A stretch of DNA of 64,000 nt. It comes from an uncultured Clostridia bacterium (GTDB lineage Bacteria > Bacillota > Clostridia > Oscillospirales > CAG-272). Position numbers and translations under genes: made by a program. Below are positions 4,751 to 46,440 of this stretch, one piece after another. The notes beneath the pieces are model-generated. The model saw only the letters and a list, made by a program, of their open reading frames with translations, ran no database searches and had not been told where the DNA came from. Within the stretch, counting starts at the first letter, position 1. Each line of letters begins with the position of its first letter. The stretch is taken from contig CANPXS010000001.1 in assembly GCA_947586625.1 (NCBI GenBank), forward strand, positions 4,001 through 68,000. The letters run 5' to 3'.

Positions 4751-4767
4751 GCATAGCTTAATAAGTG

Positions 4768-20538: not shown

Positions 20539-23500
20539 ATGCCGAACTTTACAAAATCACAACTTGACGCGATCACAACGACAGGTCACGATCTGCTCGT
20601 TTCGGCGGCGGCGGGCTCGGGCAAAACGACGGCGCTGACGGAGCGCATCGTGCGCCGCATCGAGGCGGGCGTCGACATCGGACGGCTGCTGATCGTGACG
20701 TTTTCGCGCGCGTCGGCGGCAGACATGAAAAAAAAGCTCGCGGACGCGCTGCTTTCGCGCGCCGAAACGACTGGAGACAGACGGCTGCTGCGTCAGAGCG
20801 CGCGTCTCGGCGAGGCCGAGATCGGCACGATACACAGCTTCTGCTATTCGCTCGTCCGCCGTCACAGTGAGCTGTGCGGACTGCCCGCGAAGCTGCGCGT
20901 CCCCGACGACGCCGAGGCGAAGCTGCTGCGCGAGGAGTGCATGAACGATACCGTCGACGCATTCTACGAGTCCGACAGCGGCGACGGCACAGACCCCGCC
21001 GCAGATATTGTAGCGCTCGCCGACCACATCGCGGGCAGCCGCGACGACGCGGCGATGACGAATACGCTGCTTTCGCTTTATGAGAAAACGTCGTGCCTGA
21101 CGCGGCGGTTTTACGCGATCGGTGACAGCGCCGACGCGCTCGAACATGCGGACGCCGATACATTTCTCGACTCCGACGCGGGCAAATACATAAAGCGCGC
21201 AGCCAAAGACGGCGTACACTATTATGCTGCGATAATGGAGCGCGCGTGCGCCGACATCGCCGCATACGACAAATACGCGGAAAAGTATCTGCCGTCGTTT
21301 ACCGCGTCGCTCGACTCGCTGCGCCGCGTCGAGGCGGCGCTCGACGGCGGCATCTACGGCGATACTGCCGCGGCGATAGACGCGTACTCGTCGCCGAGGC
21401 TCGGCGTCGTAAAGGGTGAGAAGCCGCCCGAAGTCGAATTTTACTGCTCGAAACGCACGGAGGCGCAGAAATACCTCGCCACCATCCGCCGCGAATATTT
21501 CTCCGCCGACGCGGACACGCTCGCCTCGTCGCTATCCGCGACATCGTCCGTGTGCCGCGGCATCGTGCGAGTTCTCTCGGACTTTGACCGCCGCTACCGC
21601 GAGGAAAAGCGTCGGCGCGGGCTCGTCGACTATGACGATCTCGAGCACATGGTGTACGAACTGCTTCTGCGTCCCGACGTGCGCGATGAGATCGCCGCCG
21701 ACTACGACGAAATTTACATAGACGAGTACCAGGACGTGAACACCGTGCAGGACGCGATATTCTCGCTTCTGTCGCGCGGCGAGCACGGCAGCAGATTCAT
21801 GGTCGGCGACGTAAAACAGTCCATATACGGTTTCAGAGGCGCTGACCCGACTATATTCGACCGCCACCGCCGCACGCTCGATACCGTATTTATGCAGGAA
21901 AATTTCCGTTGCGACGCGCCCGTCGTCGACTTCGTTAACGACGTCTGCGGTCAGCTTTTGCCGCACGGCAACGTGACGTACGAGCTGCGCGATGAGCTGC
22001 GCCATGCGAAGACCGACGCCGATATAACTTCGCGTCCGCGCGTTATCGTGACAGGGCGCGACGGCGAGGCCGCCGCCGTCGCCGATATTGCGGCAACCGC
22101 CGTCGCGGACGGCTACCGTCCCGACGACATAGCGATACTTCTGCGCTCCGCTAAAAGCCGGGGCGGCGACATCGCGGACGCGCTGCGTGCGCGCGGCATA
22201 CCGGTACAGAACGACACGCAGGCAAACTTCTTCGAGTGTCCCGAGGTGCTGCTCGTGCTCTGCCTTCTCCACGTATGCGACAGCCCACTCTACGACGTTT
22301 ACACGGCGGGCGCGCTGCGTTCGCCCGTATTCGGATTCTCTCTCGACGACCTGTCGCGCCTTTCGTCGTGCGGCGAGCACGGCGAGCCGCTGTGGTATAA
22401 GATCAAAGATGCCGCAAACGAAACCGACGGCGACACCGCGCACGAAAACGCGCTTATGACAGACGCGGTGCGCGCCAAATGCCGCGACGCATACGAGACG
22501 ATAAACCGCTGGCGCGAGGTCACGCGCACCATGACCGCCGACGAGGTCATTCGCCTCATCTACGACGAGACCGGCATCGAGTCGCTTCTGTGGACAGACG
22601 TAAACGCCGCGTCCGGCTCGCCGCAGCTCCGCGCCGACAACCTGTCCGCGCTCTACGACTACGCGCGCGGGTTCGAATCGGGCGGCTACCGCGGACTGCA
22701 CCGCTTCGTCGCCTACGTCGACAGCATCGTCGAGGGCGGCGTCAACAGCCCCGTCCGCGCGTCGGGGCCGGGCGGCACGGTGCGCATCATGACGATACAT
22801 CAGTCAAAAGGGCTCGAATTCCCCGTCGTGATAGTCGCCGGCTGCGGAAGCGCGCGAAACGAAAGCGACATTAGAGCGTCCGTTTTGTGGTCGCGGACTG
22901 CGGGCGCGGCTATGAAGCTGCGCGCGAACGCGTCGTCGACCGTCATGATCGACACGCTGCCGAGACGCGGCGTCGCCGCCGCCGTCGCCGACGAGGGCAC
23001 GGCGGAGGAAATGCGCATCCTGTACGTCGCGCTGACGCGCGCGAAGGAGCAGCTTTTCATTACCGCCGCCGTCGCAGACCCCGAAAAGACTGCCGCCGAC
23101 GCAAAGCGGGAGGCGGAGTTTTTCTCCGCGCACACGGTGCGCAGGGAAAAGACCGCGCTCGGCTGGATACTCACGTCGCTGTACGCATCGGGAAACGATT
23201 CCGCCGACGTGGAGATACGCGCCGACGCAGATGTAGAAGATGTAGCAGATGTAGAAAATGTAGAAGATGCAGCAGATGCAGATACCGCAGTCGAAGCCGA
23301 AAACGCCGCCGACGGCGCGCAATCGCAGCCTCACGCCGACGTCCCCGACGAGGACGAGGTCAACAAGTACCGCAAACTGATACGCGAGCGCCTCGACTAC
23401 CGCTACCCGTACGAGCGCATAGGCTCGCTGCCCGCGAAACTGTCGGTGTCGCGTCTGCGCCCCGACATACTCGACTCCGCCGACGAGGACGCGGTGTCTC

Positions 23501-24081
23501 TCGTCTCCGTGAAACCGTCCGCGTCGGAGGGACCGAACAAATCCGCACTCGCGGGCACCGCGACCCACATCTATATGCAGTTCTGCGACTTTGACGCCGC
23601 CGCCCGCGACGCAAAAGCGGAGGGTGAACGGCTGCTCTCGCTCGGCTACATCGCGCTTGCCGACTTCGACCGCATACGGTGGGACGAGATTGAAGCATTC
23701 TTCCGCTCCGACATATATGCGCGCATATCATCGTCGGACAAGGTGTGGCGCGAGCGCCGCTTCAACGTCAGACTGCCCGCGTCCGACTTCACCGAAGATG
23801 AATCCGACCGCGAGCTTTACCGTGATGAAGAACTGCTCGTGCAGGGCGTCATAGACTGCTTTTTCCGCGAGAGGGGCGGCATCGTGCTCCTCGATTACAA
23901 GACCGACCGACTGTCGCCGTACGAGCTTTCGCACCCCGACGCGGCATCACGCGTCCTGCGCGAACGTCACTCGCGTCAGCTCGGCTACTACCGCGCCGCG
24001 CTCACGCGCATATTCGGCGAGCCGCCCGCGCACACGTACGTGTACTCGATGGCGCTCGGCGGCACGGTCGAGATATATTAA
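20539..24081 (+). CDS. addA: helicase-exonuclease AddAB, subunit A
   Basis: UvrD/PcrA-type Walker A AAAGSGKTTAL and a C-terminal nuclease GVIDCFF..LLDYKTD. 1180 aa. Confidence 0.95.
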   Translation: MPNFTKSQLDAITTTGHDLLVSAAAGSGKTTALTERIVRRIEAGVDIGRLLIVTFSRASAADMKKKLADALLSRAETTGDRRLLRQSARLGEAEIGTIHSFCYSLVRRHSELCGLPAKLRVPDDAEAKLLREECMNDTVDAFYESDSGDGTDPAADIVALADHIAGSRDDAAMTNTLLSLYEKTSCLTRRFYAIGDSADALEHADADTFLDSDAGKYIKRAAKDGVHYYAAIMERACADIAAYDKYAEKYLPSFTASLDSLRRVEAALDGGIYGDTAAAIDAYSSPRLGVVKGEKPPEVEFYCSKRTEAQKYLATIRREYFSADADTLASSLSATSSVCRGIVRVLSDFDRRYREEKRRRGLVDYDDLEHMVYELLLRPDVRDEIAADYDEIYIDEYQDVNTVQDAIFSLLSRGEHGSRFMVGDVKQSIYGFRGADPTIFDRHRRTLDTVFMQENFRCDAPVVDFVNDVCGQLLPHGNVTYELRDELRHAKTDADITSRPRVIVTGRDGEAAAVADIAATAVADGYRPDDIAILLRSAKSRGGDIADALRARGIPVQNDTQANFFECPEVLLVLCLLHVCDSPLYDVYTAGALRSPVFGFSLDDLSRLSSCGEHGEPLWYKIKDAANETDGDTAHENALMTDAVRAKCRDAYETINRWREVTRTMTADEVIRLIYDETGIESLLWTDVNAASGSPQLRADNLSALYDYARGFESGGYRGLHRFVAYVDSIVEGGVNSPVRASGPGGTVRIMTIHQSKGLEFPVVIVAGCGSARNESDIRASVLWSRTAGAAMKLRANASSTVMIDTLPRRGVAAAVADEGTAEEMRILYVALTRAKEQLFITAAVADPEKTAADAKREAEFFSAHTVRREKTALGWILTSLYASGNDSADVEIRADADVEDVADVENVEDAADADTAVEAENAADGAQSQPHADVPDEDEVNKYRKLIRERLDYRYPYERIGSLPAKLSVSRLRPDILDSADEDAVSLVSVKPSASEGPNKSALAGTATHIYMQFCDFDAAARDAKAEGERLLSLGYIALADFDRIRWDEIEAFFRSDIYARISSSDKVWRERRFNVRLPASDFTEDESDRELYRDEELLVQGVIDCFFRERGGIVLLDYKTDRLSPYELSHPDAASRVLRERHSRQLGYYRAALTRIFGEPPAHTYVYSMALGGTVEIY

Positions 24082-26973: not shown

Positions 26974-29406
26974 TTACAAAGTTTTTGAATTTTCTTGGGA
27001 AACTTTTTCGCCAGCACGCTGTTTTTCACGCCAAAAGTCATCGAGCACACGCATGACGGCGCGCCTGTCGCCCACATATCTCATATTCTGCCAGTGCGAC
27101 GGGAACAATGCCCTATACTGCGCAGTCCCGAATCTGTCGTCCACGAGCAGCACGACGCCGCGGTCGCTCTCGCTTCTTATAACGCGCCCCGCCGCCTGCA
27201 AGACCTTGTTCATGCCGGGGAACACGTACGCGAACTCGAACCCGCGCTCGCATATTCGCTCATAGTAATCGCGCAATAGATTCAGCTCCGTCGAAAGCTG
27301 CGGCATGCCGACGCCGACGACGATGACGCCCGACAGCCTGTCGCCGGGCAGATCGACGCCCTCCGAAAACACGCCTCCGAGCACGCAGAAGCCCACCTTC
27401 GTCACCTTCGGCGACTCCGTGAACTCGTCTATGAACGACTGCCGCTCGCGCTCCGACATGTGCTGCTTCTGCACCACGACCTCGACGCCACTCCTGTCGC
27501 CGAACGCGCCGCGCAAAAGCTCGAGATACGAATACGACGGCAGATAGCAGATGTAATTGCCGACCTTCGCTTTGACGACCGCCTCGATAAGCTCCGCGAT
27601 CTCACCCGCCGTCACAGCCCTGTCCGCCATTCTCGTGCTGATTTTGTCGGCGGCGAGAATGCACAGATTGTCGCGCTCATACGGCGACGGCAGCTCGAGC
27701 GTCTCGCACTCGCCGCACCCGAGCACGCGCGCGAAATAATCCGGCGGCTCGAGCGTCGCCGAGAACATCACGACAGCGCTCGCGCGTCTCATACGCTCGT
27801 CAAGATGCGCCGATGCGTCAAGGCACATGTGCGTGCAAATCACATCTCCGCCCCTCATCTCGACGAAAGCGGTGTGACGCCTGTCAAACATGTCCGCCGA
27901 CACGGCGAAATCTGACAGCATGCGCTTCACCCGCGACAGTATCTTCGCCGCGCGCCTCTCCTCGCCGCTCTCGCCTCCGCGCATCAGAAACGCTTCGCGA
28001 CCGCACATCGCCGACGCTTCCTCCGCCGCTTTCGCGACGGCGGAAAACGGCTCGCCGCCGACGTAGAACCCGCGCATCTCGCCGTCTCCGCCGACAGTCA
28101 CGTCCTCGCACATCGCCGACGCCTTCCCTATCGCGTCCTCGACGAGCGCCAGCGACTCCTTCACATCAGCGTCGCGCGACACGTCCTTCGCCGCCGTCAC
28201 CGCCGACCGCGAAAGCGACGCCGAATACATCTCTCGCGCCCTGTCGACGAGGTTGTGAGCCTCGTCGCACAGAAGCGCGTATTTTTCACTCTTGTGTACG
28301 CTGTCCGCGCCGAAGAATCGGCGCAGGTACACGCGCGGATCGAACACATAGTTGAAATCGCATATTATAATATCGCACATCTCGGCGGCGTCGAGCGACA
28401 GCTCATACGGGCAAACGCGGTGACGCTTCGCGACCTCGACCGTCAGCTCCGGCGTGATGCATTTTCCCGCTCCTACCTCGGCGACGAGCTCCCACACCGC
28501 GTCTGCGGCACGGTCATAGTGACCGCTTGCATATTCGCAGCACTCGGCGCGGCAGTATTCGCCGTCGCCGTGACCGTCCGCGCACATGCGCTCGCGCGCC
28601 AAAACCGTTATCGCGCGCAGATGATCCGTCCTTTTGCACAGCGCCGACGACGCGTCCTCCGCCGCGAGCCTCGTCGACGTCTTAGCCGTGAGGTAGAACA
28701 CCCTGTCGACGAATCCCTCGCCGACTGCCTTGACGGACGGATAGAGCGCCGCCATCGTCTTGCCCGTACCCGTCGGCGCCTGTATCATGACGCGACCGCC
28801 GCGTCTGCACGCGCGCATGACGGCTGTCATGAACTCGGTCTGACCCTCTCTCGCTCCGCCGTACGGAAACCGCAGTTTCTTTATCGCCTGCGGCATCTTC
28901 GACTTTTTTTCGAGCGTGAGATGCGCGAACCGCTCCCACCGCGATATTATCGCCATCGCCTCGGCTTCGAGTTCCTCGCGCGAGAACACGCACTCGAAGC
29001 TGCGCTCTCTGCCTGCCGACTTCGGCACATACGTTATCCTGACGGCGGCGCGCCGCTGACCCGTGCCTCGGCACCACATGAACGCGTACAGCACGCCCTG
29101 CGCGATGTGCGCCTGCGGTATCGCGCCGTTTCCGCCGAAGAACGTGCCGGGCACCGTTTTAAGCTCCTCGACGGTGTCGTATTCCTCGCCCGTATAGATG
29201 AGGTCCGCCCTGCCGTCGATGTGATATTCGATGCCGCCGCTCTCAAACTCGAATGAGAGCGGCACCTCCGCCATTGCGCATCTTCCGTCCTCGACGCGCT
29301 TGTGCGCGAGCACGCCCTCCTCGACCGTAACGCCCGACGCGCGCCCGCCGATGTCCCCGCTCCGCGCGGCTGTATCCACTATTTCGGTAACGGTGACTGA
29401 GATCAT
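26974..29406 (-). CDS. DinG/XPD-family Fe-S DNA helicase with an N-terminal PD-(D/E)XK nuclease domain
   Basis: Helicase motifs APTGTGKT, DEAH (LLCDEAHNL) and QAAGRVIRSESDRG. Four-Cys cluster C-x9-C-x3-CC. N-terminal nuclease-like GRADLIY..VEELKT. The ATG at 29406 was chosen because the ORF extension to 29469 runs into a repeat hairpin. Confidence 0.85.
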   Translation of the reverse strand: MISVTVTEIVDTAARSGDIGGRASGVTVEEGVLAHKRVEDGRCAMAEVPLSFEFESGGIEYHIDGRADLIYTGEEYDTVEELKTVPGTFFGGNGAIPQAHIAQGVLYAFMWCRGTGQRRAAVRITYVPKSAGRERSFECVFSREELEAEAMAIISRWERFAHLTLEKKSKMPQAIKKLRFPYGGAREGQTEFMTAVMRACRRGGRVMIQAPTGTGKTMAALYPSVKAVGEGFVDRVFYLTAKTSTRLAAEDASSALCKRTDHLRAITVLARERMCADGHGDGEYCRAECCEYASGHYDRAADAVWELVAEVGAGKCITPELTVEVAKRHRVCPYELSLDAAEMCDIIICDFNYVFDPRVYLRRFFGADSVHKSEKYALLCDEAHNLVDRAREMYSASLSRSAVTAAKDVSRDADVKESLALVEDAIGKASAMCEDVTVGGDGEMRGFYVGGEPFSAVAKAAEEASAMCGREAFLMRGGESGEERRAAKILSRVKRMLSDFAVSADMFDRRHTAFVEMRGGDVICTHMCLDASAHLDERMRRASAVVMFSATLEPPDYFARVLGCGECETLELPSPYERDNLCILAADKISTRMADRAVTAGEIAELIEAVVKAKVGNYICYLPSYSYLELLRGAFGDRSGVEVVVQKQHMSERERQSFIDEFTESPKVTKVGFCVLGGVFSEGVDLPGDRLSGVIVVGVGMPQLSTELNLLRDYYERICERGFEFAYVFPGMNKVLQAAGRVIRSESDRGVVLLVDDRFGTAQYRALFPSHWQNMRYVGDRRAVMRVLDDFWREKQRAGEKVSQENSKTL

Positions 29407-29423
29407 GGTTTTGTTGGTTTTTT

Positions 29424-29700
29424 GCAGGGAGAGAGAACCTTTTTGAAAAAAGTTTCTCTCTCCCTGCACCCTCTCTTTTCAAAAACTTTTACTACTTTTT
29501 TGTTTTGATAAATCTAACAAAAACAATATCCTCGGAGATAGCTTAAGATAATCACTAATCGGTCCGCTTTTGGAGAAGGTAGCATCTCCTCACTTTGTTC
29601 GGAGCTGCCACACTTTCCGCGTAAGCGGAAAGTGTCGGAGGTTTGGCGCGTAAGCGACGAGATACCCCTCTCATTTTCAAAAACTTTTATTAAATCGATT
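29424..29700 (+). repeat. composite structured intergenic repeat, copy R1 (hairpin H, tail, module C, module B)
   Basis: Hairpin GCAGGGAGAGAGAACC..GTTTCTCTCTCCCTGC (29424-29467). Tail ACCCTCTCTTTTCAAAAACTTTTA. Module C AACAATATCCTCGGAGATAGCTTAAGATAATCACTAATCGGTCCGCTTTTGGAG. Module B includes ACACTTTCCGC-GTAA-GCGGAAAGTGT (29610-29635). Confidence 0.9.
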
Positions 29701-29716
29701 CTCCCACCGACACGCG

Positions 29717-30472
29717 TCAGAACAAGTACAGCGCCTTATTCGGGAAATCAAGAAGTGAAAGCTGCTGCGAAAGTATTTGATATCCGATCACGCCGTCTAC
29801 GTCGCGCCTTTCGCGTATCTGAGAAATATCCGTAAACACCGCGTTCACATTTTTGTATACGCGAGACCCCGCCTTTATCTCGGGGACGACATATACGCCC
29901 GGCGAGTCCGCGAGCGGAGCGGCGTCTATCTTATCCGCAAGCTCGCTTGACAAAAGACACGTATTTGCGCCCGTGTCAAGGACGAATCTGTGCGTCTCGC
30001 CCGAGATCTCAAGCTCCACGACGGGCAGCCCTTCTATATAAAGCGGGAGCTTTTCCGCGCCGCAGGTGCTGATGTCGGGCGCAACCGTAATGACAGAGTG
30101 CTCATAGTCGAGCAGTATCGCCGCGCCTCCGAACGCCTCGATCCCGACGGAGCCGAGAAAGCGTATATCCGGCTCGACCGTCCTGAGCGCGTTTTCCACA
30201 TAATCCATATCCATGCGGATAACGGACAGGTCGTATACTTTGATATTTCCGAAAGCGAACTCATGCAGCGTCGATAGCACAGCGCCGTTGACCGCCATCC
30301 CTTCATTAAACAGCGCGACCTCTTTATTCTCGCCTAAAAGCTCGGGAAAATACTTGCCGTTCAGCGACGTCTGCATCGCTCCCGTGTCAAAAGCGAAGTA
30401 CCCCTCGACATCGCCGGCATCAGCCTTTATAAGTATTATCCCCAAAATATTTTTGAACTCTATTTTCTCCAT
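29717..30472 (-). CDS. fused-dimer retropepsin-like aspartyl protease, cytoplasmic
   Basis: 251 aa from MEKIEF (RBS GGGGGA). It has two halves, each with its own catalytic motif (FAFDTGAMQTSL and FVLDTGANTCLL) and a downstream G..G...L element. No signal peptide. Confidence 0.8.
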   Translation of the reverse strand: MEKIEFKNILGIILIKADAGDVEGYFAFDTGAMQTSLNGKYFPELLGENKEVALFNEGMAVNGAVLSTLHEFAFGNIKVYDLSVIRMDMDYVENALRTVEPDIRFLGSVGIEAFGGAAILLDYEHSVITVAPDISTCGAEKLPLYIEGLPVVELEISGETHRFVLDTGANTCLLSSELADKIDAAPLADSPGVYVVPEIKAGSRVYKNVNAVFTDISQIRERRDVDGVIGYQILSQQLSLLDFPNKALYLF

Positions 30473-30531
30473 GACTGTTTCCCCCGATAAGCAGCGCATG
30501 TTCTATGCGCTTTTTTCATTATTCCCCGCCG

Positions 30532-32784
30532 CTACAGCTTCTTCTCCGCAAATCTCGCCTTTATCTCATCGGTGCGCAACCGCTCCGTCATATACGCGCG
30601 GCGCAACAGCTCCGACGGAACGTAATCGTCGTACTTATCAAACGCCGGCGTCTCGTTGTCGCCGACGAGGTCGGCGACGTCGACGCCCGCCTCAAAGTCG
30701 GCGGCTATATTTCCGAGCAGCTCCTTCGCCGTCGTCTTCTCCATCTTGAACGAGATGAAGTAGCAACCCTCGTACTCGATGCCCGACAGCCCGAACCGCT
30801 TCGCATTCTTCGACAGATACCGCCGCAGCGTGCGGAACGATTTCGTCCCGAGCCACGGGAACATGCAGTACGTGAGTCCCCCGAGCGACACGAGCGGCGA
30901 GGACAGCATACCCGTGTTCCTCGCGACGCGGCGCGCGAGGTCGAGCCGCTTTGACGCGCCCGGCTTGAGATACGGATACTCCGTATCTTCCGCGAGCACG
31001 CGGTACATGCGCTCGAGTATGCGCGTGTGTATCTCGCCGAGTTCGCCCGGCCACGATATCTCCATCTTGCCCCCGACCGACTTGACGTATATCAGCTTGC
31101 GCGCAAGGTCGAGCTCCTCGACTTCCCAAACGCGTCCCGCGAGCGCGAATCTGTCGCCGACGGGCGGCGCCTCCGATATCGTGCCGATCTCGTCCGACTC
31201 ACAGCGGACCGTGTAATCCTCCGCATCCTTGAACACGGCGTAAAACTTGAATCCCGACGTCAGCCGTTCGCCCTTCATGCCGACGATCAGACCGCCCTCG
31301 TCGGTCAGCTCTAAAAAATCGTTTTTCACCATCGAGACGAGCAGCGTCCTGAAATCTTCCCTCTCGACAGCCTCGAACGGCGGCAGCGACAATATCCTGT
31401 CTGCGAGCCGCTTCGGCGACAGCTCGCCCGACGCGACGAGCGTCGACAGCGTCTGCTGAAAAAGGAGCGAGAACGGCATTTTCCTCGTCAGCGGCGGCTC
31501 TATGAACCGCTCCTCTATATAAAGCTGTATTATCGCTATCGCGCGCAAAAGCTCCCACGGCATCATCTGCGGCAGCGGCGTGTCCGGCACGGGCGCGTCC
31601 TCGCGGAACACCATCATCATTTCGGGCGGCTCTCCGCGCCGCCCCGACCTGCCGAGTCTTTGCAGAAACGACGACACCGAAATCGGCGACCCTATCTGCA
31701 CGATGCGCTCAAGCCTGCCTATATCTATGCCGAGCTCCATCGTGACAGTCGCACACGCCACCATGCGCTCCTCGTCGCTTTTGAGAAGCGTCTCCGCCTC
31801 CTCGCGTATCGACGCGGACAGATTGCCGTGATGTATCAGGAAAATATCGGGTTCGCGGCGATTCTCCGCGATCTGACGCAGCGTAGCGCACACATACTCC
31901 GTCTCCTCGCGCGAATTTGAAAACACGAGCGCGCGCCGCCCCTTCACGCAGTCGTACACATATTCATATCCGGGGTCGATCTCGCTCGGCATCTCGTCGG
32001 GCTCGAGCCCGAGATCGCCCTGCGACGGCGTTTTACGTATCTCATGCGTACCGACGTGCAGCGTCTCCTCGTCGGCGAGGTAAAAATGCTCGAGTCCGAG
32101 CCGCCACCGCAGCGGCACAGGCTTCACCTCCGGCACATCGCACACGCGCGTGTCGCCGCCCGACAGCCACTTAGCCGCGACCTCGACGTCGCCGACTGTC
32201 GCCGACAGTCCTATCCTGCGCGGACGGTGTCCGATCGCGCGCGAGATGCGTTCGAGCTGGCATATGACCTGATTGCCGCGGTCCGTGTTCGTCATCGTGT
32301 GTATCTCGTCGATTATGACGTAGCGCAGATCGGAAAATATGCGCGGTATGTCGTTCGGTCTGTTCATCAGCATAGACTCGAGCGACTCTGGCGTTATTTG
32401 CAGTATGCCCGCCGGCGACCGCAAAAGCTTCGCCTTGTGCGACTGCGCGACGTCGCCGTGCCAGTGATAGACGGGGATCCCCGTCGCGTCGAGCAGCTCG
32501 TCGACGCGCAGAAACTGATCGTTTATCAGACTCTTGAGCGGCGCGACGTATATCGCCCCGACGCTCTTCGGCGGGTCGGAGTAAAACTCCGACAAAATGG
32601 GGAACAGCGCCGCCTCCGTCTTGCCCGACGCCGTCGCCGACGTGATGAGCAGATTGTTGTCCGTGCAGAGTATAGTCTCCGCCGCCGCCAACTGTATCTC
32701 ATGCAGCCGCTCCCACCCGTGCGAATATATGTATTCCTGTATGAACGGCGAAAACCGCTCCATCACCTCTTCGGCTGATCTCAT
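30532..32784 (-). CDS. sngC: Lhr-like SF2 DExH helicase (Shango SngC-like)
   Basis: Motifs SATASGKTEAA, YVAPLKSLINDQ, VIIDEIHTM, GLSATVGD, ELGIDIG and QRLGRSGRRGE. ATG at 32784; the TTG-start extension to 32856 translates a repeat hairpin. Confidence 0.85.
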   Translation of the reverse strand: MRSAEEVMERFSPFIQEYIYSHGWERLHEIQLAAAETILCTDNNLLITSATASGKTEAALFPILSEFYSDPPKSVGAIYVAPLKSLINDQFLRVDELLDATGIPVYHWHGDVAQSHKAKLLRSPAGILQITPESLESMLMNRPNDIPRIFSDLRYVIIDEIHTMTNTDRGNQVICQLERISRAIGHRPRRIGLSATVGDVEVAAKWLSGGDTRVCDVPEVKPVPLRWRLGLEHFYLADEETLHVGTHEIRKTPSQGDLGLEPDEMPSEIDPGYEYVYDCVKGRRALVFSNSREETEYVCATLRQIAENRREPDIFLIHHGNLSASIREEAETLLKSDEERMVACATVTMELGIDIGRLERIVQIGSPISVSSFLQRLGRSGRRGEPPEMMMVFREDAPVPDTPLPQMMPWELLRAIAIIQLYIEERFIEPPLTRKMPFSLLFQQTLSTLVASGELSPKRLADRILSLPPFEAVEREDFRTLLVSMVKNDFLELTDEGGLIVGMKGERLTSGFKFYAVFKDAEDYTVRCESDEIGTISEAPPVGDRFALAGRVWEVEELDLARKLIYVKSVGGKMEISWPGELGEIHTRILERMYRVLAEDTEYPYLKPGASKRLDLARRVARNTGMLSSPLVSLGGLTYCMFPWLGTKSFRTLRRYLSKNAKRFGLSGIEYEGCYFISFKMEKTTAKELLGNIAADFEAGVDVADLVGDNETPAFDKYDDYVPSELLRRAYMTERLRTDEIKARFAEKKL

Positions 32785-32798
32785 GGTTTGATTTATAT

Positions 32799-33280
32799 CC
32801 GGAGGGAAAGGGACTTTTTGAAAAGTCCCTCTCCCTCCGGACCTCCCTCTCTTCAAAAACTTTTATTATATTTTTTATTTTGGCAAAGTAAACGGAAACA
32901 ATATCTTCGGAGATAGCTTAAGATATGCACTAATCGGTCCGCTTTTGTGCGAGGAGCATCTCCTCACTTCGTTCGGAGCTGCCACACTTTCCGCAAAGCG
33001 GAAAGTGTCGGAGGTTTGGAGCGTAAGCGACAAAACTCCCAACTTTCTACAAAAAGGTTCCTCGCAAATGAAAGAAGTCCCTCTCCCATTAATCACTATA
33101 TTTCAAAAACTTTTATTTCTTTTCTATTTTTACAAATCTGACGAAAACAATATCTTCAGGGCGGACTTAAGATAATCACTAATCGGTCCGCTTTTGGAGA
33201 AGGTAGGGGACACCTTTTACAAAAAGGGGTCCCCGAAACAAAAAAGTTTCCCCCATCTTATATCCCAAAAACTTATCACC
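32799..33280 (+). repeat. composite structured intergenic repeat, copy R2 (two tandem units)
   Basis: Hairpin CCGGAGGGAAAGGGAC..GTCCCTCTCCCTCCGG (32799-32840). It is followed by the tail, module C and module B (hairpin 32984-33008), then a second hairpin, tail, module C and hairpin. Same orientation as R1. Confidence 0.9.
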
Positions 33281-34708
33281 TTATATCACGATATCGTTCG
33301 GGTCAAAATCTGCACGTGCCGGCCTCGTCTCTGCCGCACCGACCGACTCGCCATCGCCCTTATCCTCATCGATCGCACTGTCGCCGCCCTCGTCGCTGAC
33401 GCCTCCCTCGTCGCCGTCTCCGACCGGCGTGAGCTTGACAGCGTCGCCGAGGATATCGGCAAATTCCGCCTCGGGATTCTGATAAAGGATATTGAGCACC
33501 GATATATAATCGCGTATTATCTCACGCGGCGTAATCATGATATTCGCGCCCGCCGTCTCGAGACAGACGCGGACGAACGTCTCGGGGTCGCCCTCCGACA
33601 CGCGCGGCTGCCAGTTATAGTAAAGCGCATGCAGCGCCGTCACGCGCAGGACGAGCGCCAACAGCTCGTTATCCGACAGCCTGCGCAGCCTTATGACGGG
33701 GCCGAGCATATTGCGGTACTCGCCGCTGTCGAACCTGCCGTCTGCGAGTCTGCCGCGCAGCGCCTCATAGCTGAAAAGTCCGCGACGTCTGTCCTCCAAA
33801 AACTGCGGCGTGCCGCCGAACACGAGCATCAGATGCTCCGCCCTGCCCTCGAGCGTGTCGTTATACATGGACAGTATCTTTTCGTAGTTGTTTTCGCGGC
33901 TCGTGCGATTCGGTATCTTATATAGGTTGACGCACTCGTCGATGAACACGACGAGTCCCGAATATCCTATCCCTGCGGCGAGGCGCGAGATCAGCTTGAT
34001 ATACTCGTACCAGTTGTCGTCGCCGACGATGCCGCCGACGCGCAGCGCCGCCTTCGCCTCCGTCTTGGTGTTGTACTCGCCGCGCAGATACCGCATGCAC
34101 GCGCTTTTCGACTCCTCGTCGCCGCTTTCGCACGCGTCGAAATATCTCGACAGCACGAGCGCGAAGTCAAAGCCGCCGACGCCGCCCTCTAACTCGCGCA
34201 CCGTGTCGAAAATCCTTGCGCGCACGGTCTTGTCAAACTCATCGCTGCCGACCGCAAAGCCGTCCGCCGCGACTCTCGACTTTATATCCGATATCCACTT
34301 AGCCAAAATCTGCGGCAGCGCGCCGCCGTCCGGCGACGACTTCGTCGCAAGATTGCGCACAAGCTCGCGGTACGTCGCAACGCCAGCGCCAGACGACCCG
34401 CACAGCCTGCGTTCTATCGAGAGGTCGCAGTCTGCGGTGACGAATCCCCTTTCGAGTGCGTAGCCGCGCAAAAGCTGTATCAGAAAACTCTTACCCGAGC
34501 CGTAGCGCCCGATGAGGAATCTCATCGCGCCCTCGCCCTCGGCGACGCGCTTCATATCGTCCGTCATCGCCGCGATCTCATCCGTCCTGCCTATCGCGAT
34601 ATAGGGCGCGCCCGCGCGCGGCACGACTCCCGCCGACAGCGAATTCATCAGCTGCGACAGTATTCGCCTCGGCACCCTCTCCGCGGACTGTGTATTTATA
34701 TAGGGCAT
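33281..34708 (-). CDS. sngB: DUF2791-type P-loop ATPase (Shango SngB-like)
   Basis: 475 aa with Walker A GRYGSGKS, Walker B GLVVFIDE and an acidic C-terminal tail. It lies between the TerB-like and helicase genes. Confidence 0.8.
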   Translation of the reverse strand: MPYINTQSAERVPRRILSQLMNSLSAGVVPRAGAPYIAIGRTDEIAAMTDDMKRVAEGEGAMRFLIGRYGSGKSFLIQLLRGYALERGFVTADCDLSIERRLCGSSGAGVATYRELVRNLATKSSPDGGALPQILAKWISDIKSRVAADGFAVGSDEFDKTVRARIFDTVRELEGGVGGFDFALVLSRYFDACESGDEESKSACMRYLRGEYNTKTEAKAALRVGGIVGDDNWYEYIKLISRLAAGIGYSGLVVFIDECVNLYKIPNRTSRENNYEKILSMYNDTLEGRAEHLMLVFGGTPQFLEDRRRGLFSYEALRGRLADGRFDSGEYRNMLGPVIRLRRLSDNELLALVLRVTALHALYYNWQPRVSEGDPETFVRVCLETAGANIMITPREIIRDYISVLNILYQNPEAEFADILGDAVKLTPVGDGDEGGVSDEGGDSAIDEDKGDGESVGAAETRPARADFDPNDIVI

Positions 34709-34714
34709 ATGGTT

Positions 34715-35015
34715 TATTCCCGGGGGAAAAACTTTTTATAAGAAAGTTGGCGTTTCCTTCGTAAACGCACGAGTTTTCTTCAAAAACTCTGTCCCCCCGA
34801 ACCCCCTTTTCAAAAACTTTTATTGACAATTTTTAATTATTGGTCAGGTAAAATTTAGTGCGGCTCCGAGCGCAGCGGCGAGCCGCCGATCGCTTTTGGG
34901 GAGGGGTGCGGGGAACACCTTTTCTTGGAAAAGGGGTTATCCGCCTTGTCCAAAAAAGTTTTCCCTCCGGACCTCCCTTTCAAAAACTTTTCCTGACTTT
35001 TTTATCTTACTATGA
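34715..35015 (+). repeat. composite structured intergenic repeat, copy R3 (diverged)
   Basis: It contains the tail motif TTCAAAAACT three times, G-rich/C-rich hairpins, and CCCTCCGGACCTCCCTTTCAAAAACTTTT shared with R2. Module C is degenerate (GCCGATCGCTTTTGG). Confidence 0.75.
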
Positions 35016-35020
35016 CTTTT

Positions 35021-36859
35021 TTACTCTAAATCCTGTCTGTAATCTTCAACGACTGCGTAGCCCCCGTCGCCGCCGGCTTCGAGCACGATATCGCCGATCT
35101 CGTCCGTTTCGGTCGCCGCATCGTTTATGCGCGCCGCGACCTCGTCCGCATAAATGCCGCGTTCGCGGCAATACTCGCCCTGCGCGTCAACACCCGCACC
35201 CGCAAGCACGAGACGCAGGAATCCCGCAGCGTCCCCGTCGAGCCGCGAATAAAGCCCGCCGCCGCTTACATCATCGCTTATTTCCGCCTTCGCGACTTCG
35301 ACCGCGTTCTCAACCGCATCTTCCACCGCATCCGCAACCGCAGTTGTATCCGTATCGTCGGCTTCAGCTTCCGTCTCCGTCAAAAGCTCCGTCGACGCCC
35401 ACGACGCACGCTCTATCTCCGCCGCGCTCTCCGCGTCCATGCCCACCGACAGCGCCTCGTACATGCTCCCGTCGTAGTCGCCGCCGAAAACGATGTCGTC
35501 GCTATTCTCGCCGTCCGCGCGCGTCGACTTCTTCGTTCTGTAAAACTGCGTCGGGAACTCGCGCGCAAAGTACTCGTCGACGAGCGACGCCAAATCGGGC
35601 GCAAGCTCGCCCACGCGCAGACGCGCCTTTATCCCGAGGCAAGACCGCAGCTTATTCTCCGCATATTTGACAAGCTCCGTTGCCGTCGACCGCAGTTCCC
35701 GCGACCGCACATACGACAGATACTCGATGTCGATGCGGCACTTGACGTTGTGCGCGCAAAGCGACCCGCAGAACGCGTCCCGCGAAACGACCGCCTCCCT
35801 CATCGACCCGCGCGATAACATATCGCCCCGCCGCTCAATGACATATCCGACGGCACCCGGCATATGGCGCTTGTATTCGTCCGCAGTTTTCTCTTCGAGC
35901 GCAAATTTGCTCTTCTGCCAATGGTAATCGGACGAAAGATCCATCCACGACCCGGCGCCGATGCTGCCGCCGTCGCCGGACATATAGAACTCCTTCAGCG
36001 TCGCCGCTTCGAGCACGGCGGGCAGAATGGGCGCAAGCTGCTCGAGCGGCGCTTGCAGACGGTTGATGAGACAGTAATCCGCCACCCATTCCGACAGGTA
36101 CTTGTCGAGCACCTTGTCCTTTTCCCTGTACGCGAGCCACACCGCGCACAAACTGCGCACGCCGTCCTCGGGCGCGATGACGCCGCGCAGATTAATTATC
36201 TCATACACATACAAAAGCACGTACGAGAACGACGCCGGCAGCCAAACTCCCGCCCTCGCGTTCTCGCGCCACCAAAGATAGTACGACAGCTGCGCCTTCG
36301 ACATCTGCCTGTACTGCGGCGTATACGAGAAGAAATCGACTTTTTCGCACTCGTGACCCTTCACATCCGCGTACCGCTTCGCGTCAAAGCGGAACTGCTC
36401 GTAAAAGCTGTACCGTGACGGCCACTGCATGACGCGCACACGCTTGATGAGGCCGTGCTCGGGCTCGTATTCGAGTATCGGCTCCGCCGTCGTACGCGAT
36501 GTGCGCGAGACGCTCTCGCGTCTCGGCAGGCGTAGCCTGTCCGCGTCCGTGTCCGTGTCATTATCAATATCTATATCAATACCGCCGCCGCCGCCAGACG
36601 ACCCGGTCATATTTACATTTATGTTTATATTTCTGTCTATGTTTACATTCGCGTTTATATTCACATTCGCGCCCGTGACCTCGCGGAACCGCGCCGACAG
36701 ACTGCCTCGCCCCCGCTGCGTCTCCGTCCTTGACGCTTCCGGCGCACCGAACTCTATTTCCACCGTCTCGACGTCGCGCTCGCGCCTTTGCACCGGCGGA
36801 CGCTTTTTCGGCACGAGAGAGGACAGATCCCAGAAGTCGTCCTTGTTCGTTTCAGCCAT
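35021..36859 (-). CDS. sngA: TerB-N/TerB-C domain protein (Shango SngA-like)
   Basis: 612 aa from MAETNKDDFWD (RBS GAAAGGAGAG). TerB-N-like core FFSYTPQYRQMSKAQLSYYLWWRENARAG. TerB-C-like tail ..ADEVAARINDAATETDEIGDIVLE..YAVVEDY. The ORF extension to 37108 lies in repeats. Confidence 0.8.
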   Translation of the reverse strand: MAETNKDDFWDLSSLVPKKRPPVQRRERDVETVEIEFGAPEASRTETQRGRGSLSARFREVTGANVNINANVNIDRNININVNMTGSSGGGGGIDIDIDNDTDTDADRLRLPRRESVSRTSRTTAEPILEYEPEHGLIKRVRVMQWPSRYSFYEQFRFDAKRYADVKGHECEKVDFFSYTPQYRQMSKAQLSYYLWWRENARAGVWLPASFSYVLLYVYEIINLRGVIAPEDGVRSLCAVWLAYREKDKVLDKYLSEWVADYCLINRLQAPLEQLAPILPAVLEAATLKEFYMSGDGGSIGAGSWMDLSSDYHWQKSKFALEEKTADEYKRHMPGAVGYVIERRGDMLSRGSMREAVVSRDAFCGSLCAHNVKCRIDIEYLSYVRSRELRSTATELVKYAENKLRSCLGIKARLRVGELAPDLASLVDEYFAREFPTQFYRTKKSTRADGENSDDIVFGGDYDGSMYEALSVGMDAESAAEIERASWASTELLTETEAEADDTDTTAVADAVEDAVENAVEVAKAEISDDVSGGGLYSRLDGDAAGFLRLVLAGAGVDAQGEYCRERGIYADEVAARINDAATETDEIGDIVLEAGGDGGYAVVEDYRQDLE

Positions 36860-36908
36860 GATCCGCACTCTCCTTTCGGCATAAAAAACATTTGTTCTAT
36901 ATCGTATT

Positions 36909-36937
36909 ATTATACCACAAAATTGCGATTTTGTCAA
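36909..36937 (-). promoter_or_regulatory. consensus extended -10 promoter of the Shango-like operon
   Basis: On the minus strand: TTGACA (36937-36932), 17-bp spacer ending in TGG, TATAAT (36914-36909). It lies about 50 nt upstream of the sngA-like ATG. Confidence 0.75.
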
Positions 36938-37019
36938 TCCGTTCGCAACGTTTTTTTGACGCTGCCGCCAAAAAAATAAGCGGGAGATGTGGTGCGAAAG
37001 AAAAATTGTAAGTGTATAT

Positions 37020-37542
37020 TTTGAAACGAGAGAAACTTTTTTCATTTGCGAGGAACCTTTTTGTAGAAAGTTGGGAGTTTTGTCGCTTACGCTCCAAACC
37101 TCCGACACTTTCCGCTTTGCGAAAATGTGTGTGTAACGTCTTCTCGTTACACTCGAAGCCGTCCTGCACTTTCCGCTTCGCGGAAAGTGTGGCAGCTCCG
37201 AGCAAAGCGAGGAGATGCTCCTCGCACAAAAGCGGACCGATTAGTGCATATCTTAAGCTATCTCCAAAATTATTGTTTCCGTTTACTTTGAAAAAACTTG
37301 TCATAAAAATTCTTGAAATATAGGTGTTAATGGGAGAGAAACTTTTTTCAGTTGCGAGGAACCTTTTTGTAAAAGTTTCCTCCCGCTCCTCCAAAAGCGG
37401 ACCGATTAGTGATTATCTTAAGCTATCTCCGAGGATATTGTTTCCGGTTGCTTTTTCAAAAGAAAAAATTGTAATAAAAGTTCTTGAAAAGAGAGGGTGC
37501 AGGGAGAGAAAAACTTCTTTCAAGAAGTTTTTCTCTCCCTGC
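37020..37542 (-). repeat. composite structured intergenic repeat, copy R4 (two units, inverted relative to R1-R3)
   Basis: Reverse complement of the R2/R1 module order. The long unit 37028-37290 has a 61-nt internal hairpin duplication. The short unit ends in hairpin 37499-37542, which abuts the csaB stop codon (37553). Confidence 0.9.
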
Positions 37543-37552
37543 AATAAACACC

Positions 37553-38647
37553 CTACTTACTCTCCACCATTCTGCGCAGCTCGTAAAGACCTCCCATAGC
37601 GCGCTGCGACATCTGCGCCGCCATCGACAACGCCAGCGAGGCGAAATGCTCGCGTCTCGCCGTCACCTCGTCGACGAAGCGGCACAGCGACACCGAGTCC
37701 GACATCTCATCCATACCGGCGCATACGCTGTCCGTCATGCGGCAGAACGACGTTATCTTCGGGTCGCAGCCGACGCCGACGGACGGCGTCCCCATCGCGC
37801 ACGCGAATATAAGCGTGTGCAGTCTCATGCCGAGCGCGAACTCGGCGCCGCTCATGACGCGCTTCGCGTCCGCGATGCTGAAGCTGCCGTCCCACACGCG
37901 CGCACATCGGCACATCCGCGCTATGCGCAACGACAGTGCGAGATCCTCGTCGCGCTGCATCGGCACGAGCAGCGGCACGATGCCGTGCTCGCGTATACGA
38001 ACGCATACGTCCGCGAATACGCGCGGCAGCGTCATCATCGCGCCCCTGTGCGGACGAGGCGATACGACCGCATACCGCTCGCCCGCGCCGATCCCTGCGG
38101 AGCTTGCGTCTCTGCCGCCCGTATCGTCAATGCCGCCGAGCAGAAACGCCGTGTCGGCGGCGACCGCGACATGCATGTCCGAGACGTTGAGCCCCATCTT
38201 CTGCAAAAGCGCATACGACTCGCTGTCGCGCAGCGTTATCCTGTCTATGTACTTCAAAACCGAGGCCGTTCGCCTTCGGCTCGAATCGCGCATCAGCGGA
38301 CCTATACCGTTAGACAGCAGCATCGTCTTCATGCCGCGCATCTCCGCCTCGTAGAGGAGCCATAAATAATAATAGAGCGAACGGCAGCTCGTCACATCCT
38401 GCAAAAGACTGCCTCCGCCGAATACGAACGACGTCCCCGCGTTCATTTCGCCTATGACGTCGACGAGCGAATACCTATGTACGGCGCGTACGCCGTACAT
38501 GCGCTCCGTCTCGCTCGGGCGCATAGACAAAACGGTGACGGTCTTGCCCGGCATCATTTTTCTTATTTCGTCAAGAACTATCGCCAACAGCGCCTCGTCG
38601 CCGCTGTTGCCGAAGCCGAAATATCCCGCGAGAACGATGTCGGACAA
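37553..38647 (-). CDS. csaB: polysaccharide pyruvyl transferase CsaB
   Basis: N-terminus MSDIVLAGYFGFGNSGDEALLAIVLDEI. 364 aa. Confidence 0.88.
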   Translation of the reverse strand: MSDIVLAGYFGFGNSGDEALLAIVLDEIRKMMPGKTVTVLSMRPSETERMYGVRAVHRYSLVDVIGEMNAGTSFVFGGGSLLQDVTSCRSLYYYLWLLYEAEMRGMKTMLLSNGIGPLMRDSSRRRTASVLKYIDRITLRDSESYALLQKMGLNVSDMHVAVAADTAFLLGGIDDTGGRDASSAGIGAGERYAVVSPRPHRGAMMTLPRVFADVCVRIREHGIVPLLVPMQRDEDLALSLRIARMCRCARVWDGSFSIADAKRVMSGAEFALGMRLHTLIFACAMGTPSVGVGCDPKITSFCRMTDSVCAGMDEMSDSVSLCRFVDEVTARREHFASLALSMAAQMSQRAMGGLYELRRMVESK

Positions 38648-45048: not shown

Positions 45049-45453
45049 ATGAAAAATCATCGTTTTTTTGTTAAATTCGTCTCGGCGTCCGCCGCGTTCG
45101 CGCTAGCGCTTGCGGCGATGTCGCCGATATGCCTCGCTTATGAGCTGCCCGACGCGGAGCTTCTCGCCGCCTACATCGAGGGCGGTCCCGCCGACGAGCT
45201 CTACGGCATGATAGCCGTCGGCGCCACCATAATAAACCGCATACGCTCAGACGATTTCACCGATTCTCTCTCTGCGAACGCGTCCTCACTCGGCATATTC
45301 CCGTCGCCGTCGCCGTCCGAGATGGCGCTGTACGCGTCGCATCTTGTGCTGTCGGGCGAGGACCCGACGCACGGCGCTGTCCGCATCATACGCGGCAACG
45401 CGGACGGCGAAAACGTCACGCTCGTCACGTGCGGACTGTCGTTTTCGCGTTAG
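45049..45453 (+). CDS. secreted SleB-type cell wall hydrolase domain protein
   Basis: Signal peptide MKNHRFFVKFVSASAAFALALAAM, then AVGATIINRIRSDDFTDSL (Hydrolase_2-like). Confidence 0.6.
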   Translation: MKNHRFFVKFVSASAAFALALAAMSPICLAYELPDAELLAAYIEGGPADELYGMIAVGATIINRIRSDDFTDSLSANASSLGIFPSPSPSEMALYASHLVLSGEDPTHGAVRIIRGNADGENVTLVTCGLSFSR

Positions 45454-45636
45454 TGAAAACCATTCGCGTTAGTGAAAACCATTCGCGTTAGTGAAAACCA
45501 TTCGCGTTAGTGAAAACCATTCGCGTTAGTGAAAACCGTTCACGTTAGTGAAAACTTTGCGCGGCAGCACAAACCATTCGCGTCAACGCAAACCGTTTAC
45601 GGCAACGCAAACCGTTTACGGCAACGAAAAACGGGA
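45447..45636 (+). repeat. 19-bp tandem repeat array, 10 units in register
   Basis: GCGTTAGTGAAAACCATTC occurs 5 times near-perfectly (45447-45541), then five progressively diverged units (e.g. ACGGCAACGCAAACCGTTT). The first unit contains the stop codon of the upstream CDS. Confidence 0.9.
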
Positions 45637-45670: not shown

Positions 45671-45744
45671 TCGGAGTGACTGGATTCGAACCAGCGGCCT
45701 CTTGGTCCCGAACCAAGCGCTCTACCGGACTGAGCCACACCCCG
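45671..45744 (-). tRNA. tRNA-Pro (anticodon CGG)
   Basis: The reverse complement CGGGGTGTGGCTCAGTCCGGTAGAGCGCTTGGTTCGGGACCAAGAGGCCGCTGGTTCGAATCCAGTCACTCCGA folds as a cloverleaf. The anticodon loop is TTCGGGA and the T-loop is GGTTCGAATCC. Confidence 0.95.
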
Positions 45745-45859: not shown

Positions 45860-46400
45860 CGCCGGCGGGAATGATGCACGCTTTCCGCGAAGCGGAAACC
45901 ACCGCCGCCCAAACGGTGACAATGAGCCGGAGGCTTCCAAGCAAAACCTACGCGCACCGTGCTCGTGCGCTGACGGCTCGTCCAGCGTCAAACGCAGACA
46001 CGACGTTTTGACGGTGATATCGCCCCGTCGCGAGGGAGCTGTTCGCAGGAAGTTATAACGCGGTGTTCTTTTGGAGAGGGGGGGCGGGCGTAGGTTGGCG
46101 CGAAGCGACAAACTACCACTTTTCTCTTAATAAGAAAAGGTCCTCATCCCCGTTTATCTCTTTCTTGCGAGAAAGTCCCCCTTGTCAAAAACATGTTCGT
46201 AGGTGTGAAAGACGTCACCACGTCAGGTGTGCAAAGGTAGCTGCCGGTGGAGACGCACCGCATGATGAACCGCGTGTGAGCAGTATCTCCTCACTGCGTT
46301 CGGAGCTACGACACGTTTTCGCTTCGCGAAAAGTGTGGGAGATGCCAGTTTCGGAAACGGGTGAGCAGTAGCGCGAAAAATAATACATAAATTTGTGAAA
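45860..46400 (+). repeat. decayed tandem copies of repeat modules (module B type and hairpin/tail type)
   Basis: Examples: CACGCTTTCCGC-GAA-GCGGAAACC (~45876). GCAGTATCTCCTCACTGCGTTCGGAGCTACGACACGTTTTCGCTTCGCGAAAAGTGTGG (~46283-46340). CGTAGGT...GCCGG units, and a hairpin/tail-like stretch ending in TTGTCAAAAACATG (~46130-46195). Confidence 0.7.
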
Positions 46401-46405
46401 AGCAC

Positions 46406-46434: not shown

Positions 46435-46440
46435 ATAGGT

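Follow-up and report, generated by a model that had tools for sequence, protein, structure and literature searches.

A lineage-specific mosaic repeat with a mirror-tailed palindrome occupies the gene junctions of a Shango defence operon in an uncultured Clostridia bacterium

We analysed a 64-kb stretch of DNA from an uncultured Clostridia bacterium (hereafter the window; contig CANPXS010000001.1 of assembly GCA_947586625.1, forward-strand positions 4,001-68,000), in which long hairpin-rich repeat arrays separate the genes of a Shango anti-phage operon. This system consists of SngA, SngB and SngC (PMC10250203; bioRxiv 10.1101/2022.05.11.491447), and PADLOC and Pfam placed all three in one minus-strand cluster, comprising SngA with its TerB domain (Pfam TerB_N; 35021-36859; PADLOC 7.5e-44), the BrxC/D-type ATPase SngB (Pfam BrxC_BrxD; 33281-34708; 2.7e-160) and the helicase SngC (DEAD/Helicase_C; 30532-32784; 1.9e-239). 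On the same strand lie a further operon member encoding a DinG-like helicase (26974-29406), a retropepsin-like Asp protease gene between this and SngC (29717-30499), and the neighbouring gene csaB (37553-38647). The top PADLOC match of the DinG/Rad3-type helicase was a type IV CRISPR-associated DinG (9.8e-115). The gaps separating the DinG-like gene from the protease gene, SngC from SngB, SngB from SngA and SngA from csaB measure 310, 496, 312 and 693 nt, respectively, and are filled by four arrays, R1 to R4. These arrays belong to a lineage-specific, genome-wide, non-coding repeat family that is not specific to the operon, and we lean towards the view that they are a mosaic repeat of selfish or neutral character that has a triplex-type palindrome as its anchor and was inserted or expanded in a formerly compact operon.

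An earlier note on this DNA had described the four arrays as built from shared modules, and the similarity is real and far beyond chance. Self-BLAST aligned R1 with R2 at 84% over 235 nt (E 7e-64) and with the inverted R4 at 89% over 164 nt (E 2e-57), and R2 with R4 at 95% over 104 nt. A module map bore out the co-orientation of R1-R3 and the inversion of R4, and showed a constant order of a hairpin H, its tail, an AT-rich spacer ending in AACGAAAACAATATC, a module C, an optional module B, a second hairpin H' and the next tail. R1 (29417-29700, plus strand) lies between the start of the DinG-like gene (29406) and the stop of the protease gene (29717), with H at 29423-29468, a pyrimidine tail at 29469-29479 followed by CAAAAAC (29480-29486) and TTTTACTAC (29487-29495), a promoter-like TTGATA-16-TATCCT (29505-29532) and the conserved spacer plus C (29516-29572). 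Module B follows as parts B1 (29586-29604), the B2 hairpin (29605-29640) and B3 (29637-29658), with a second tail at 29666-29692. R2 (32792-33280, plus) is flanked by the start of SngC (32784) and the stop of SngB (33281). Its first unit has H at 32798-32841, the tail at 32842-32869, a promoter-like site at 32880-32907 and C at 32928-32947, with B (~32955-33040) sitting in the 5' half of H', the 3' part of which is at ~33041-33068; a second tail (~33090-33121), promoter-like site (33129-33156), C (33177-33196) and H' (33207-33235) then lead into a degenerate tail ending at 33280.

R4 (37020-37552, minus) lies between the csaB stop (37553) and the Shango promoter and reads, on the minus strand, as H (37543-37498), tail (37497-37470), promoter-like site (37459-37432), C (37411-37392), H' plus tail (~37385-37300), a second C (37246-37227), a long B with two B2 hairpins (37225-37073), and the 3' part of H' with a degenerate tail (37072-37020). 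The fixed order is kept in the window and in 18 loci of a related metagenome-assembled genome (MAG) described below. The claim that all four arrays share the same ordered modules holds for R1, R2 and R4 but not for R3 (34709-35020, plus; SngB start at 34708 to SngA stop at 35021), which deviates. Here a variant H with a nested hairpin insertion (34720-34799) and its tail (34801-34827) are followed by a GC-rich module in place of C and the conserved spacer (~34858-34900), a hairpin (~34908-34945) and a second mirror tail (~34960-35000). A solitary H (49645-49688) with its tail (49689-49716) stands on the plus strand at 49645-49716, where the earlier note had placed a copy, flanked by plus-strand genes at 49257-49634 and 49748-51259. 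From tail to tail, units without B measure 162-171 nt, in line with the ~170 nt first estimated, but those with B measure 198-250 nt, or ~300 nt with the long B, rather than ~260 nt.

We searched 185,579 species-representative genomes for the invariant 20-mer of C, CACTAATCGGTCCGCTTTTG, of which the window has five copies. Outside the window it was found at 19 sites on 18 contig stretches, all in one fragmented MAG of a rabbit-gut Clostridia, uncultured Clostridia bacterium Lapin-014__bin21, and so the modules are not unique to the window. The MAG copies form arrays of 1 to at least 5 units at gene boundaries beside unrelated genes, which leaves a role specific to the defence operon without support; three loci (L007, L010 and L001) are orthologous to R1, R2 and R4, respectively. 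All five JGI metagenome matches to a degenerate C pattern were rejected as chance, their flanks being dissimilar. No Rfam 15 family matched at gathering or E-value thresholds, the best being a generic hairpin at 35 bits against a 55.8-bit cut-off, and blastn of R2 against phages and plasmids returned no match. The core palindrome AAAACTTCTTGAAAGAAGTTTT does lie after a stop codon in two viral contigs of 58% GC (IMG/VR UViG_3300031555; L034 1230-1320 and L035 1870-1960), one of which has the tail end TTTCAAGAACTTTTGAC and neither of which has the purine/pyrimidine outer arms.

We traced SngB homologues of 77-97% identity to their contigs and compared synteny; an exact look-up of the window SngB found no record. 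In three related genomes the SngA-SngB-SngC-DinG-AsnS block is syntenic and tight, with SngA/SngB, SngB/SngC and SngC/DinG gaps of 23, 62 and 19 nt in L026, 10, 97 and 28 nt in L029, and 18, 93 and 10 nt in L032. The DinG-type helicase is directly 3' of SngC in all three and is possibly a fourth, conserved member of this Shango variant, and the protease gene, present only in the window lineage (the window and L007 of the MAG), is absent from them, leaving SngC and DinG 10-28 nt apart. L029, L031 and L032 each carry exactly one minimal H plus tail, at the SngB/SngC junction and oriented as R2, and the SngA/SngB junction of L026 and L029 is repeat-free with an ordinary GGAGG Shine-Dalgarno sequence; L032 retains AAGGAG downstream of its H plus tail. 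Closer relatives differ by whole units. In the window the SngA/SngB gap measures 312 nt, as against 245 nt in L024 (97% SngB identity) and 82 nt, with H and tail only, in L025 (92%), and the SngB/SngC gap of L025 is one unit shorter than that of the window (333 vs 496 nt). The MAG site orthologous to R1 has flanks of ~96-97% identity, a near-identical spacer and C, and H' in place of B, yet its 5' arm, 3' arm and tail have changed coordinately (GGGAGAGAGAA/CCCTCTCTTTT vs GGGGGAAAAGAAAA/CCCCCTTTTCTTT). Because related operons are compact and close relatives differ by whole units, the arrays are recent insertions or expansions in a once-compact operon. The likeness to REP and BOX elements that had been proposed is upheld by the multiple copies, by their absence from compact orthologous operons and by these whole-unit differences. 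The repeats disrupt short-read assemblies, and the 1.5-5-kb contigs that hold the closest SngB homologues fit assembly breaks at repeats.

Each H is a near-perfect palindrome of 42-48 nt with a purine-rich outer 5' arm and a core of AAACTTYTT-loop-AARAAGTTT. ViennaRNA, which covers Watson-Crick pairs only, folded it as single-stranded DNA at -21 to -24 kcal/mol (z = -6.4 to -8.7), leaving the tail unpaired. The tail, read 5' to 3', is the parallel complement of the 5' half of the hairpin, that is, a mirror of its 3' arm, as in GGGAGAGAAAAA...TTTTTCTCTCCC-TGCA-CCCTCTCTTTT. We compared cognate with non-cognate pairings of tail and stem in 27-29 non-identical copies. The whole-half mirror score was 11.0 for a tail with its own stem vs 7.9 with other stems (0/20,000 permutations reached the observed value), and for the purine tract alone 6.26 vs 4.04 (0/50,000), although the copies are related, so that these counts overstate independence and are not probabilities. 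The signal was much weaker when the tail was scored as directly repeating the 3' arm (7.0 vs 6.3) or as pairing with the stem in antiparallel Watson-Crick fashion (0.57 vs 0.01), and neither reading survived, as the asymmetric variants CTCTTT with CAGAAAC and CTTTCT with CAAAGAC contradict both.

The mirror rule extends past the purine tract into CTTCTTG. An inner stem CTTCTT goes with the tail CAAGAAC, CTTTTT with CAAAAAC and, in the 49.6-kb copy, the likewise asymmetric CTCTTA with CAGAAT; the parallel complement is kept at inner positions +1 to +5 by 93-100% of 27 copies, changes having occurred on both sides. A T-rich 5' flank that could pair with the CAAAAAC tail in R1 was not general across copies and was set aside. 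Up to an invariable C:C at the crossover position, the tail matches the triplet code for a third strand of the pyrimidine motif (T*A-T, C*G-C), running in parallel with the purine strand, and past it the code for the purine motif (A*A-T, G*G-C), antiparallel and on the opposite strand. Such a reading, pyrimidine then purine motif on opposite strands, is alternate-strand triplex recognition. Papers on alternate-strand triplexes appear in the reference list of PMC2532714. The order of purine, pyrimidine and third-strand blocks (R-Y-H) is that of a class III intrastrand triplex motif, or class I on the other strand. Of the 27 copies, 16 reach 8 or more canonical triplets when no more than one interruption and a turn of 2-7 nt are allowed, vs 20% of non-cognate pairings. 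Set beside the threshold for an intrastrand triplex motif (at least 6-8 triplets, at most one mismatch), R1 has 10, R2 9, R4 11 and the 49.6-kb copy 6. The ITxF short-loop rule allows 1-6 nt in both loops; here the turn before the tail is 3-4 nt, but a self-paired core of 14-20 nt lies between the purine and pyrimidine blocks.

The covariation of the mirror tail with its own stem is a new and testable feature of these sequences, which the earlier note had overlooked. We regard it as possible, though with well under even confidence, that H and its tail are kept by selection as a three-stranded fold, a natural alternate-strand triplex (pyrimidine motif, C:C crossover, purine motif) that would seed unit duplication or conversion at gene junctions, those within a defence island included. 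A triplex formed in RNA at 3' ends was rejected as the principal explanation, since sense copies after stop codons have ~7.1 triplets in a hand tally vs ~9.1 in antisense copies next to starts. Because purine-motif triplexes do not form in RNA (PMC4666352), and because antisense start-adjacent copies at least equal sense copies in triplet potential, a constraint at the level of DNA is favoured.

Several observations weigh against the preferred account as a whole, in addition to the relatedness of copies that tempers the permutation counts. The triplex itself is deduced from base patterns; only about three independent asymmetric inner variants separate the mirror from the direct-repeat model, and ~40% of copies have poor tails, e.g. 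CCCCTATCTTTT. When terminal and internal units were compared as a control, the internal ones that lack the 5' arm kept a mirror score that did not differ significantly (8.1 vs 9.0, p = 0.16), and therefore inheritance through duplication accounts for part of the mirror signal. C+*G-C triplets in a row are disfavoured at neutral pH, and the E. coli motif yields a stable triplex only as an isolated single strand, with none seen in vivo (PMC4666352). Furthermore, the near-invariance of C hints at a sequence-specific function that the account leaves unexplained, and neutral spread predicts an enrichment at Shango junctions only if spread is local.

The closest precedent is that E. coli motif, the BoxC/PIT/TM_ECO element, a dispersed intrastrand triplex motif (Holder et al. 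2015, PMC4666352; Hoyne et al. 2000 cited therein). That element is intergenic without orientation bias, acts neither as promoter nor as terminator, adopts a triplex in vitro when single-stranded and has been tied to local instability of the genome (PMC4666352). Both it and the present motif are short, multicopy, strictly intergenic palindromic repeats in which purine, Watson-Crick pyrimidine and third-strand blocks follow one another on one strand, with a G/A vs C/T composition and sequences of the GGGAGAGGG/CCCTCTCCC type, and both have an unclear orientation rule and loci that differ between close relatives. However, the block order here is R-Y-H (class III/I) rather than Y-R-RH (class II), and the TM_ECO consensus CCCTCNCCC-N3-6-GGGNGAGGG-N3-GGGNGAGGG had 0 matches on either strand of the window. 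The stem is far longer (17-24 bp) and holds the self-paired AAACTTYTT...AARAAGTTT core instead of a 3-6-nt loop, the tail match extends into non-purine stem as in alternate-strand recognition, and the arms are highly diverse where those of TM_ECO are near-identical. Unlike TM_ECO, a proteobacterial element, the motif in this Clostridia lineage also anchors tandem arrays of extra modules.

Among those modules, H' proved to be a genuine hairpin, conserved and supported by five covarying pairs in an RNAalifold analysis of 21 units, and is followed by an A-rich, not U-rich, stretch. The same analysis recovered no consensus structure for C, only the H' after it, so the 6-bp stem once assigned to C does not hold as a conserved structure. 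B is a nested insertion within the 5' half of H'. It comprises a small hairpin looped by TCACTNCGTTC, 11-bp hairpins, either single or double, in which one pair shows a compensatory CG/TA change, and GGAGGTTTG...CAAAACTCC, a hairpin with GCGTAAGC as its cap. The GNRA loop attributed to B proved true of R1 alone (GTAA), with AAA, GAA or TTC elsewhere.

C is the best-conserved module by sequence, and this conservation in sequence and not structure fits the idea that each unit is a small transcription unit, in which a sigma-70-type promoter in the spacer would drive a multicopy small RNA containing C, antisense to defence-gene 3' ends in R1-R3. A promoter-like TTGAnA-16-TATCyT with 9/12 consensus matches occupies the same position, on the H-to-C strand, in four of the five C-containing window units, with its -10-like TATCYT inside the near-invariant block AACAATATC, and in R1-R3 it points antisense to the operon. 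Yet the -35 region is highly variable among copies, chance often produces 9/12 matches (an expected 4.3 per 8.4 kb), the units have no terminator, only the A-rich stretch after H', and none matched Rfam, leaving this the explanation to which we give little credence.

Transcription of the operon would start at a native Shango promoter outside the repeat, TTGACA-17-TGgTATAAT (36937-36909, minus; 12/12 consensus), and SngA has a Shine-Dalgarno sequence, AGGAG, 8 nt before its ATG at 36859. R4 is upstream of this promoter, in the csaB 3' region, and therefore outside the operon transcript, which the earlier note had also missed. The note's picture of structured RNA within that transcript is supported by R2, the mRNA-sense RNA of which has a minimum free energy of -169 kcal/mol (z = -6.0), but does not extend to R4. 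As had been noticed, the R4 hairpin follows csaB directly. Its H begins 9 nt past the stop on the transcribed strand and is terminator-like; in a scan for a GC-rich hairpin with a U-tract within 0-2 nt on the sense side it alone passed, with the tail CCCTCTCTTT. Ordinary terminators of different appearance occur in the window at 4767, 12265, 46751 and 57520. Automatic calls of orientation from open reading frames were unreliable in this GC-rich DNA; read by eye, ~15 sites are sense after a stop and 7-12 are antisense, facing a start codon.

R1-R3 lie within the presumed operon transcript in antisense orientation and so present hairpins without a U-rich tail on the mRNA. Their H stands ~10-17 nt from the DinG, SngC and SngB start codons across an A-rich linker (...AAAACC-ATG), with start-region linkers AAAAAACCAACAAAACC, ATATAAATCAAACC and GAATAAACCAT at 29406-29423, 32784-32798 and 34708-34720 (minus), respectively. 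Unlike the compact orthologues, none of the three starts has a Shine-Dalgarno sequence within 20 nt. A GGAGG-like stretch just 5' of the hairpin falls within the reverse complement of the tail, and a split, hairpin-bridged ribosome-binding site is conceivable from this layout. The DinG-like and SngC frames remain open upstream through the entire H (26974-29469 and 30532-32856, minus), adding 21 and 24 codons from GTG and TTG, respectively, which is probably chance yet inflates calls of open reading frames.

These features could be read as adaptation, with the arrays serving as cis-regulatory RNA of the defence operon (processing sites, stabilisers, attenuators or insulators) that uncouples expression of SngA, SngB, SngC and DinG. 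The arrays are strongly structured as RNA, R1-R3 are all antisense without a U-rich mRNA tail where R4 is terminator-oriented after csaB, arrays are enriched at Shango junctions within the window, and transcript attenuation, cleavage or stabilisation is known for BIME, ERIC, Correia and BOX elements (PMC3049150). We nevertheless consider this unlikely, given that the identical unit type stands beside unrelated MAG genes, orthologous operons work without arrays, array content varies between close relatives, a sense H plus tail lies between two co-oriented genes at 49.6 kb, and consensus RNA structure is limited to the hairpins.

In organisation the arrays have the properties of BOX-like and BIME-like repeats, being multicopy and intergenic, with ordered modules and variable internal unit number. 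They resemble the pneumococcal BOX element (boxA, tandem boxB, boxC; Croucher et al. 2011, PMC3049150) as composite, modular, non-coding Gram-positive repeats that are highly base-paired, vary in internal unit number (BOX 67-637 bp), have no known transposase of their own and stand at operon 5' and 3' ends and inside operons, where BOX can be co-transcribed (PMC3049150). This likeness is one of organisation, with no sequence relationship expected; BOX has no mirror or triplex-type module, and terminal inverted repeats and target duplications are reported for BOX but not definable here. REP/BIME elements of enterobacteria and pseudomonads are likewise extragenic palindromes at gene ends, in mosaic clusters with short motifs, and can attenuate transcription or stabilise upstream mRNA (PMC3049150, PMC4666352), but REPs are 20-40 nt and alternate in BIMEs, whereas the units here are in direct tandem.

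The earlier note had also invoked MITEs, a comparison for which we saw no support: no terminal inverted pair was seen, the arrays opening with a palindrome and closing with a tail, and no transposase-like gene was noticed in the window, though no systematic scan was made. The repeat-free SngB/SngC site of L026 and the minimally occupied sites of L029 and L032 are too diverged for target duplications to be read. A related proposal is that spacer, C, H' and tail together form a ~165-nt non-autonomous element moved in trans by a single-strand HUH/Y1 transposase of the IS200/IS605 or RAYT type, which would recognise folded hairpins and insert this unit 3' of the tail end ...TTTTATTAC/TGAC. The insertion point of IS608 is 3' of TTAC, and members of the IS200/IS605 family recognise their sites through base pairing or base triples with hairpin-adjacent DNA; the unit always follows a tail ending in T(T/G)AC, ends in the same motif, has hairpins at its borders and carries a C that is near-identical among dispersed copies, as if recently spread. 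We hold this to be doubtful nonetheless, as tandem duplication yields an equal flanking direct repeat and solitary C units lacking the H-plus-tail anchor were not seen, in addition to the undefinable termini and target duplications and the lack of a noticed transposase.

The first units of R1 (29417-29578) and R4 (37549-37386) are inverted and bracket an 8.1-kb segment from the protease gene to SngA. A composite transposon bounded by them was rejected, since the outlying DinG belongs to the ancestral operon. The MAG orthologues of these two units are mutually dissimilar, unlike the window pair, and because the 89% identity is found in the window and not in the MAG, ectopic gene conversion within the locus is suggested by the comparison; the pair could also be a substrate for inversion. 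By our own count, arrays occupy four of the five junctions of the Shango cluster vs ~1 of 39 elsewhere in the window (Fisher p ~2e-4), which suggests local spread.

The region at 45.86-46.75 kb, listed before as a further array copy, is instead a mosaic of a second dispersed family (45880-46790, ~0.7 kb) that shares B-like hairpins alone, with B-like pieces within 45.88-46.69 kb, namely a B-like module of B1 and B2 hairpins inserted at 46283-46341 (plus) and a further copy at 46637-46692. This family has inverted arms of ~150 nt (45917-46064 vs 46480-46640), a CAAGGGGGACTTTCT...AGAAAGTCCCCCTTG hairpin, an internal near-consensus promoter TTGACA-17-TGTGGTATAAT (46407-46436, plus) and a canonical terminator (46751-46788), which together suggest a multicopy RNA of ~330 nt, a candidate unmatched in Rfam. 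Its copies in the MAG (L005, L006, L009, L016 and L018) often adjoin H/C arrays. Two simpler tandem repeats were also observed in the window. At 45406-45633, ~10 units of 19 nt (TTCGCGTTAGTGAAAACCA), decaying 3'-ward, adjoin a tRNA gene (45671-45744, minus), and five ATGTAGAAG-like 9-nt copies at 23222-23284 lie within an AddA-like gene (20539-24081) and code for an acidic D/V/E-rich stretch.

Taken together, in the explanation that we judge slightly more probable than not, a BOX/BIME-like mosaic repeat would have colonised gene boundaries in one rabbit-gut Clostridia clade, with H and its tail anchoring every array and arrays growing by unit duplication and gene conversion. A single strand exposed in replication or transcription may fold as a hairpin or triplex, and this fold may stall or misalign synthesis, so that slippage would duplicate or lose units or convert them from the tail side, a tie to instability also proposed for the triplex motifs of E. 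coli. The effects on the Shango operon would then be by-products, namely long structured spacers, weak promoter-like sites in antisense, a hairpin following csaB and, before SngB, SngC and DinG, the loss of the Shine-Dalgarno sequence.

A compact defence operon has in this lineage been split by structured repeats of 0.3-0.7 kb with its genes intact, which raises the question of how SngB, SngC and DinG are translated without a Shine-Dalgarno sequence. The earlier case for bacterial intrastrand triplexes consisted of pattern counts and one near-invariant E. coli motif, whereas the many distinct stems with matching tails described here allow a covariation argument and a direct mutational or biophysical test of the triplex. 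If the three-stranded fold is true, three-way compensatory change at both orthologous and paralogous sites would be the first comparative-sequence proof of a selected triple helix in a bacterial dispersed repeat.

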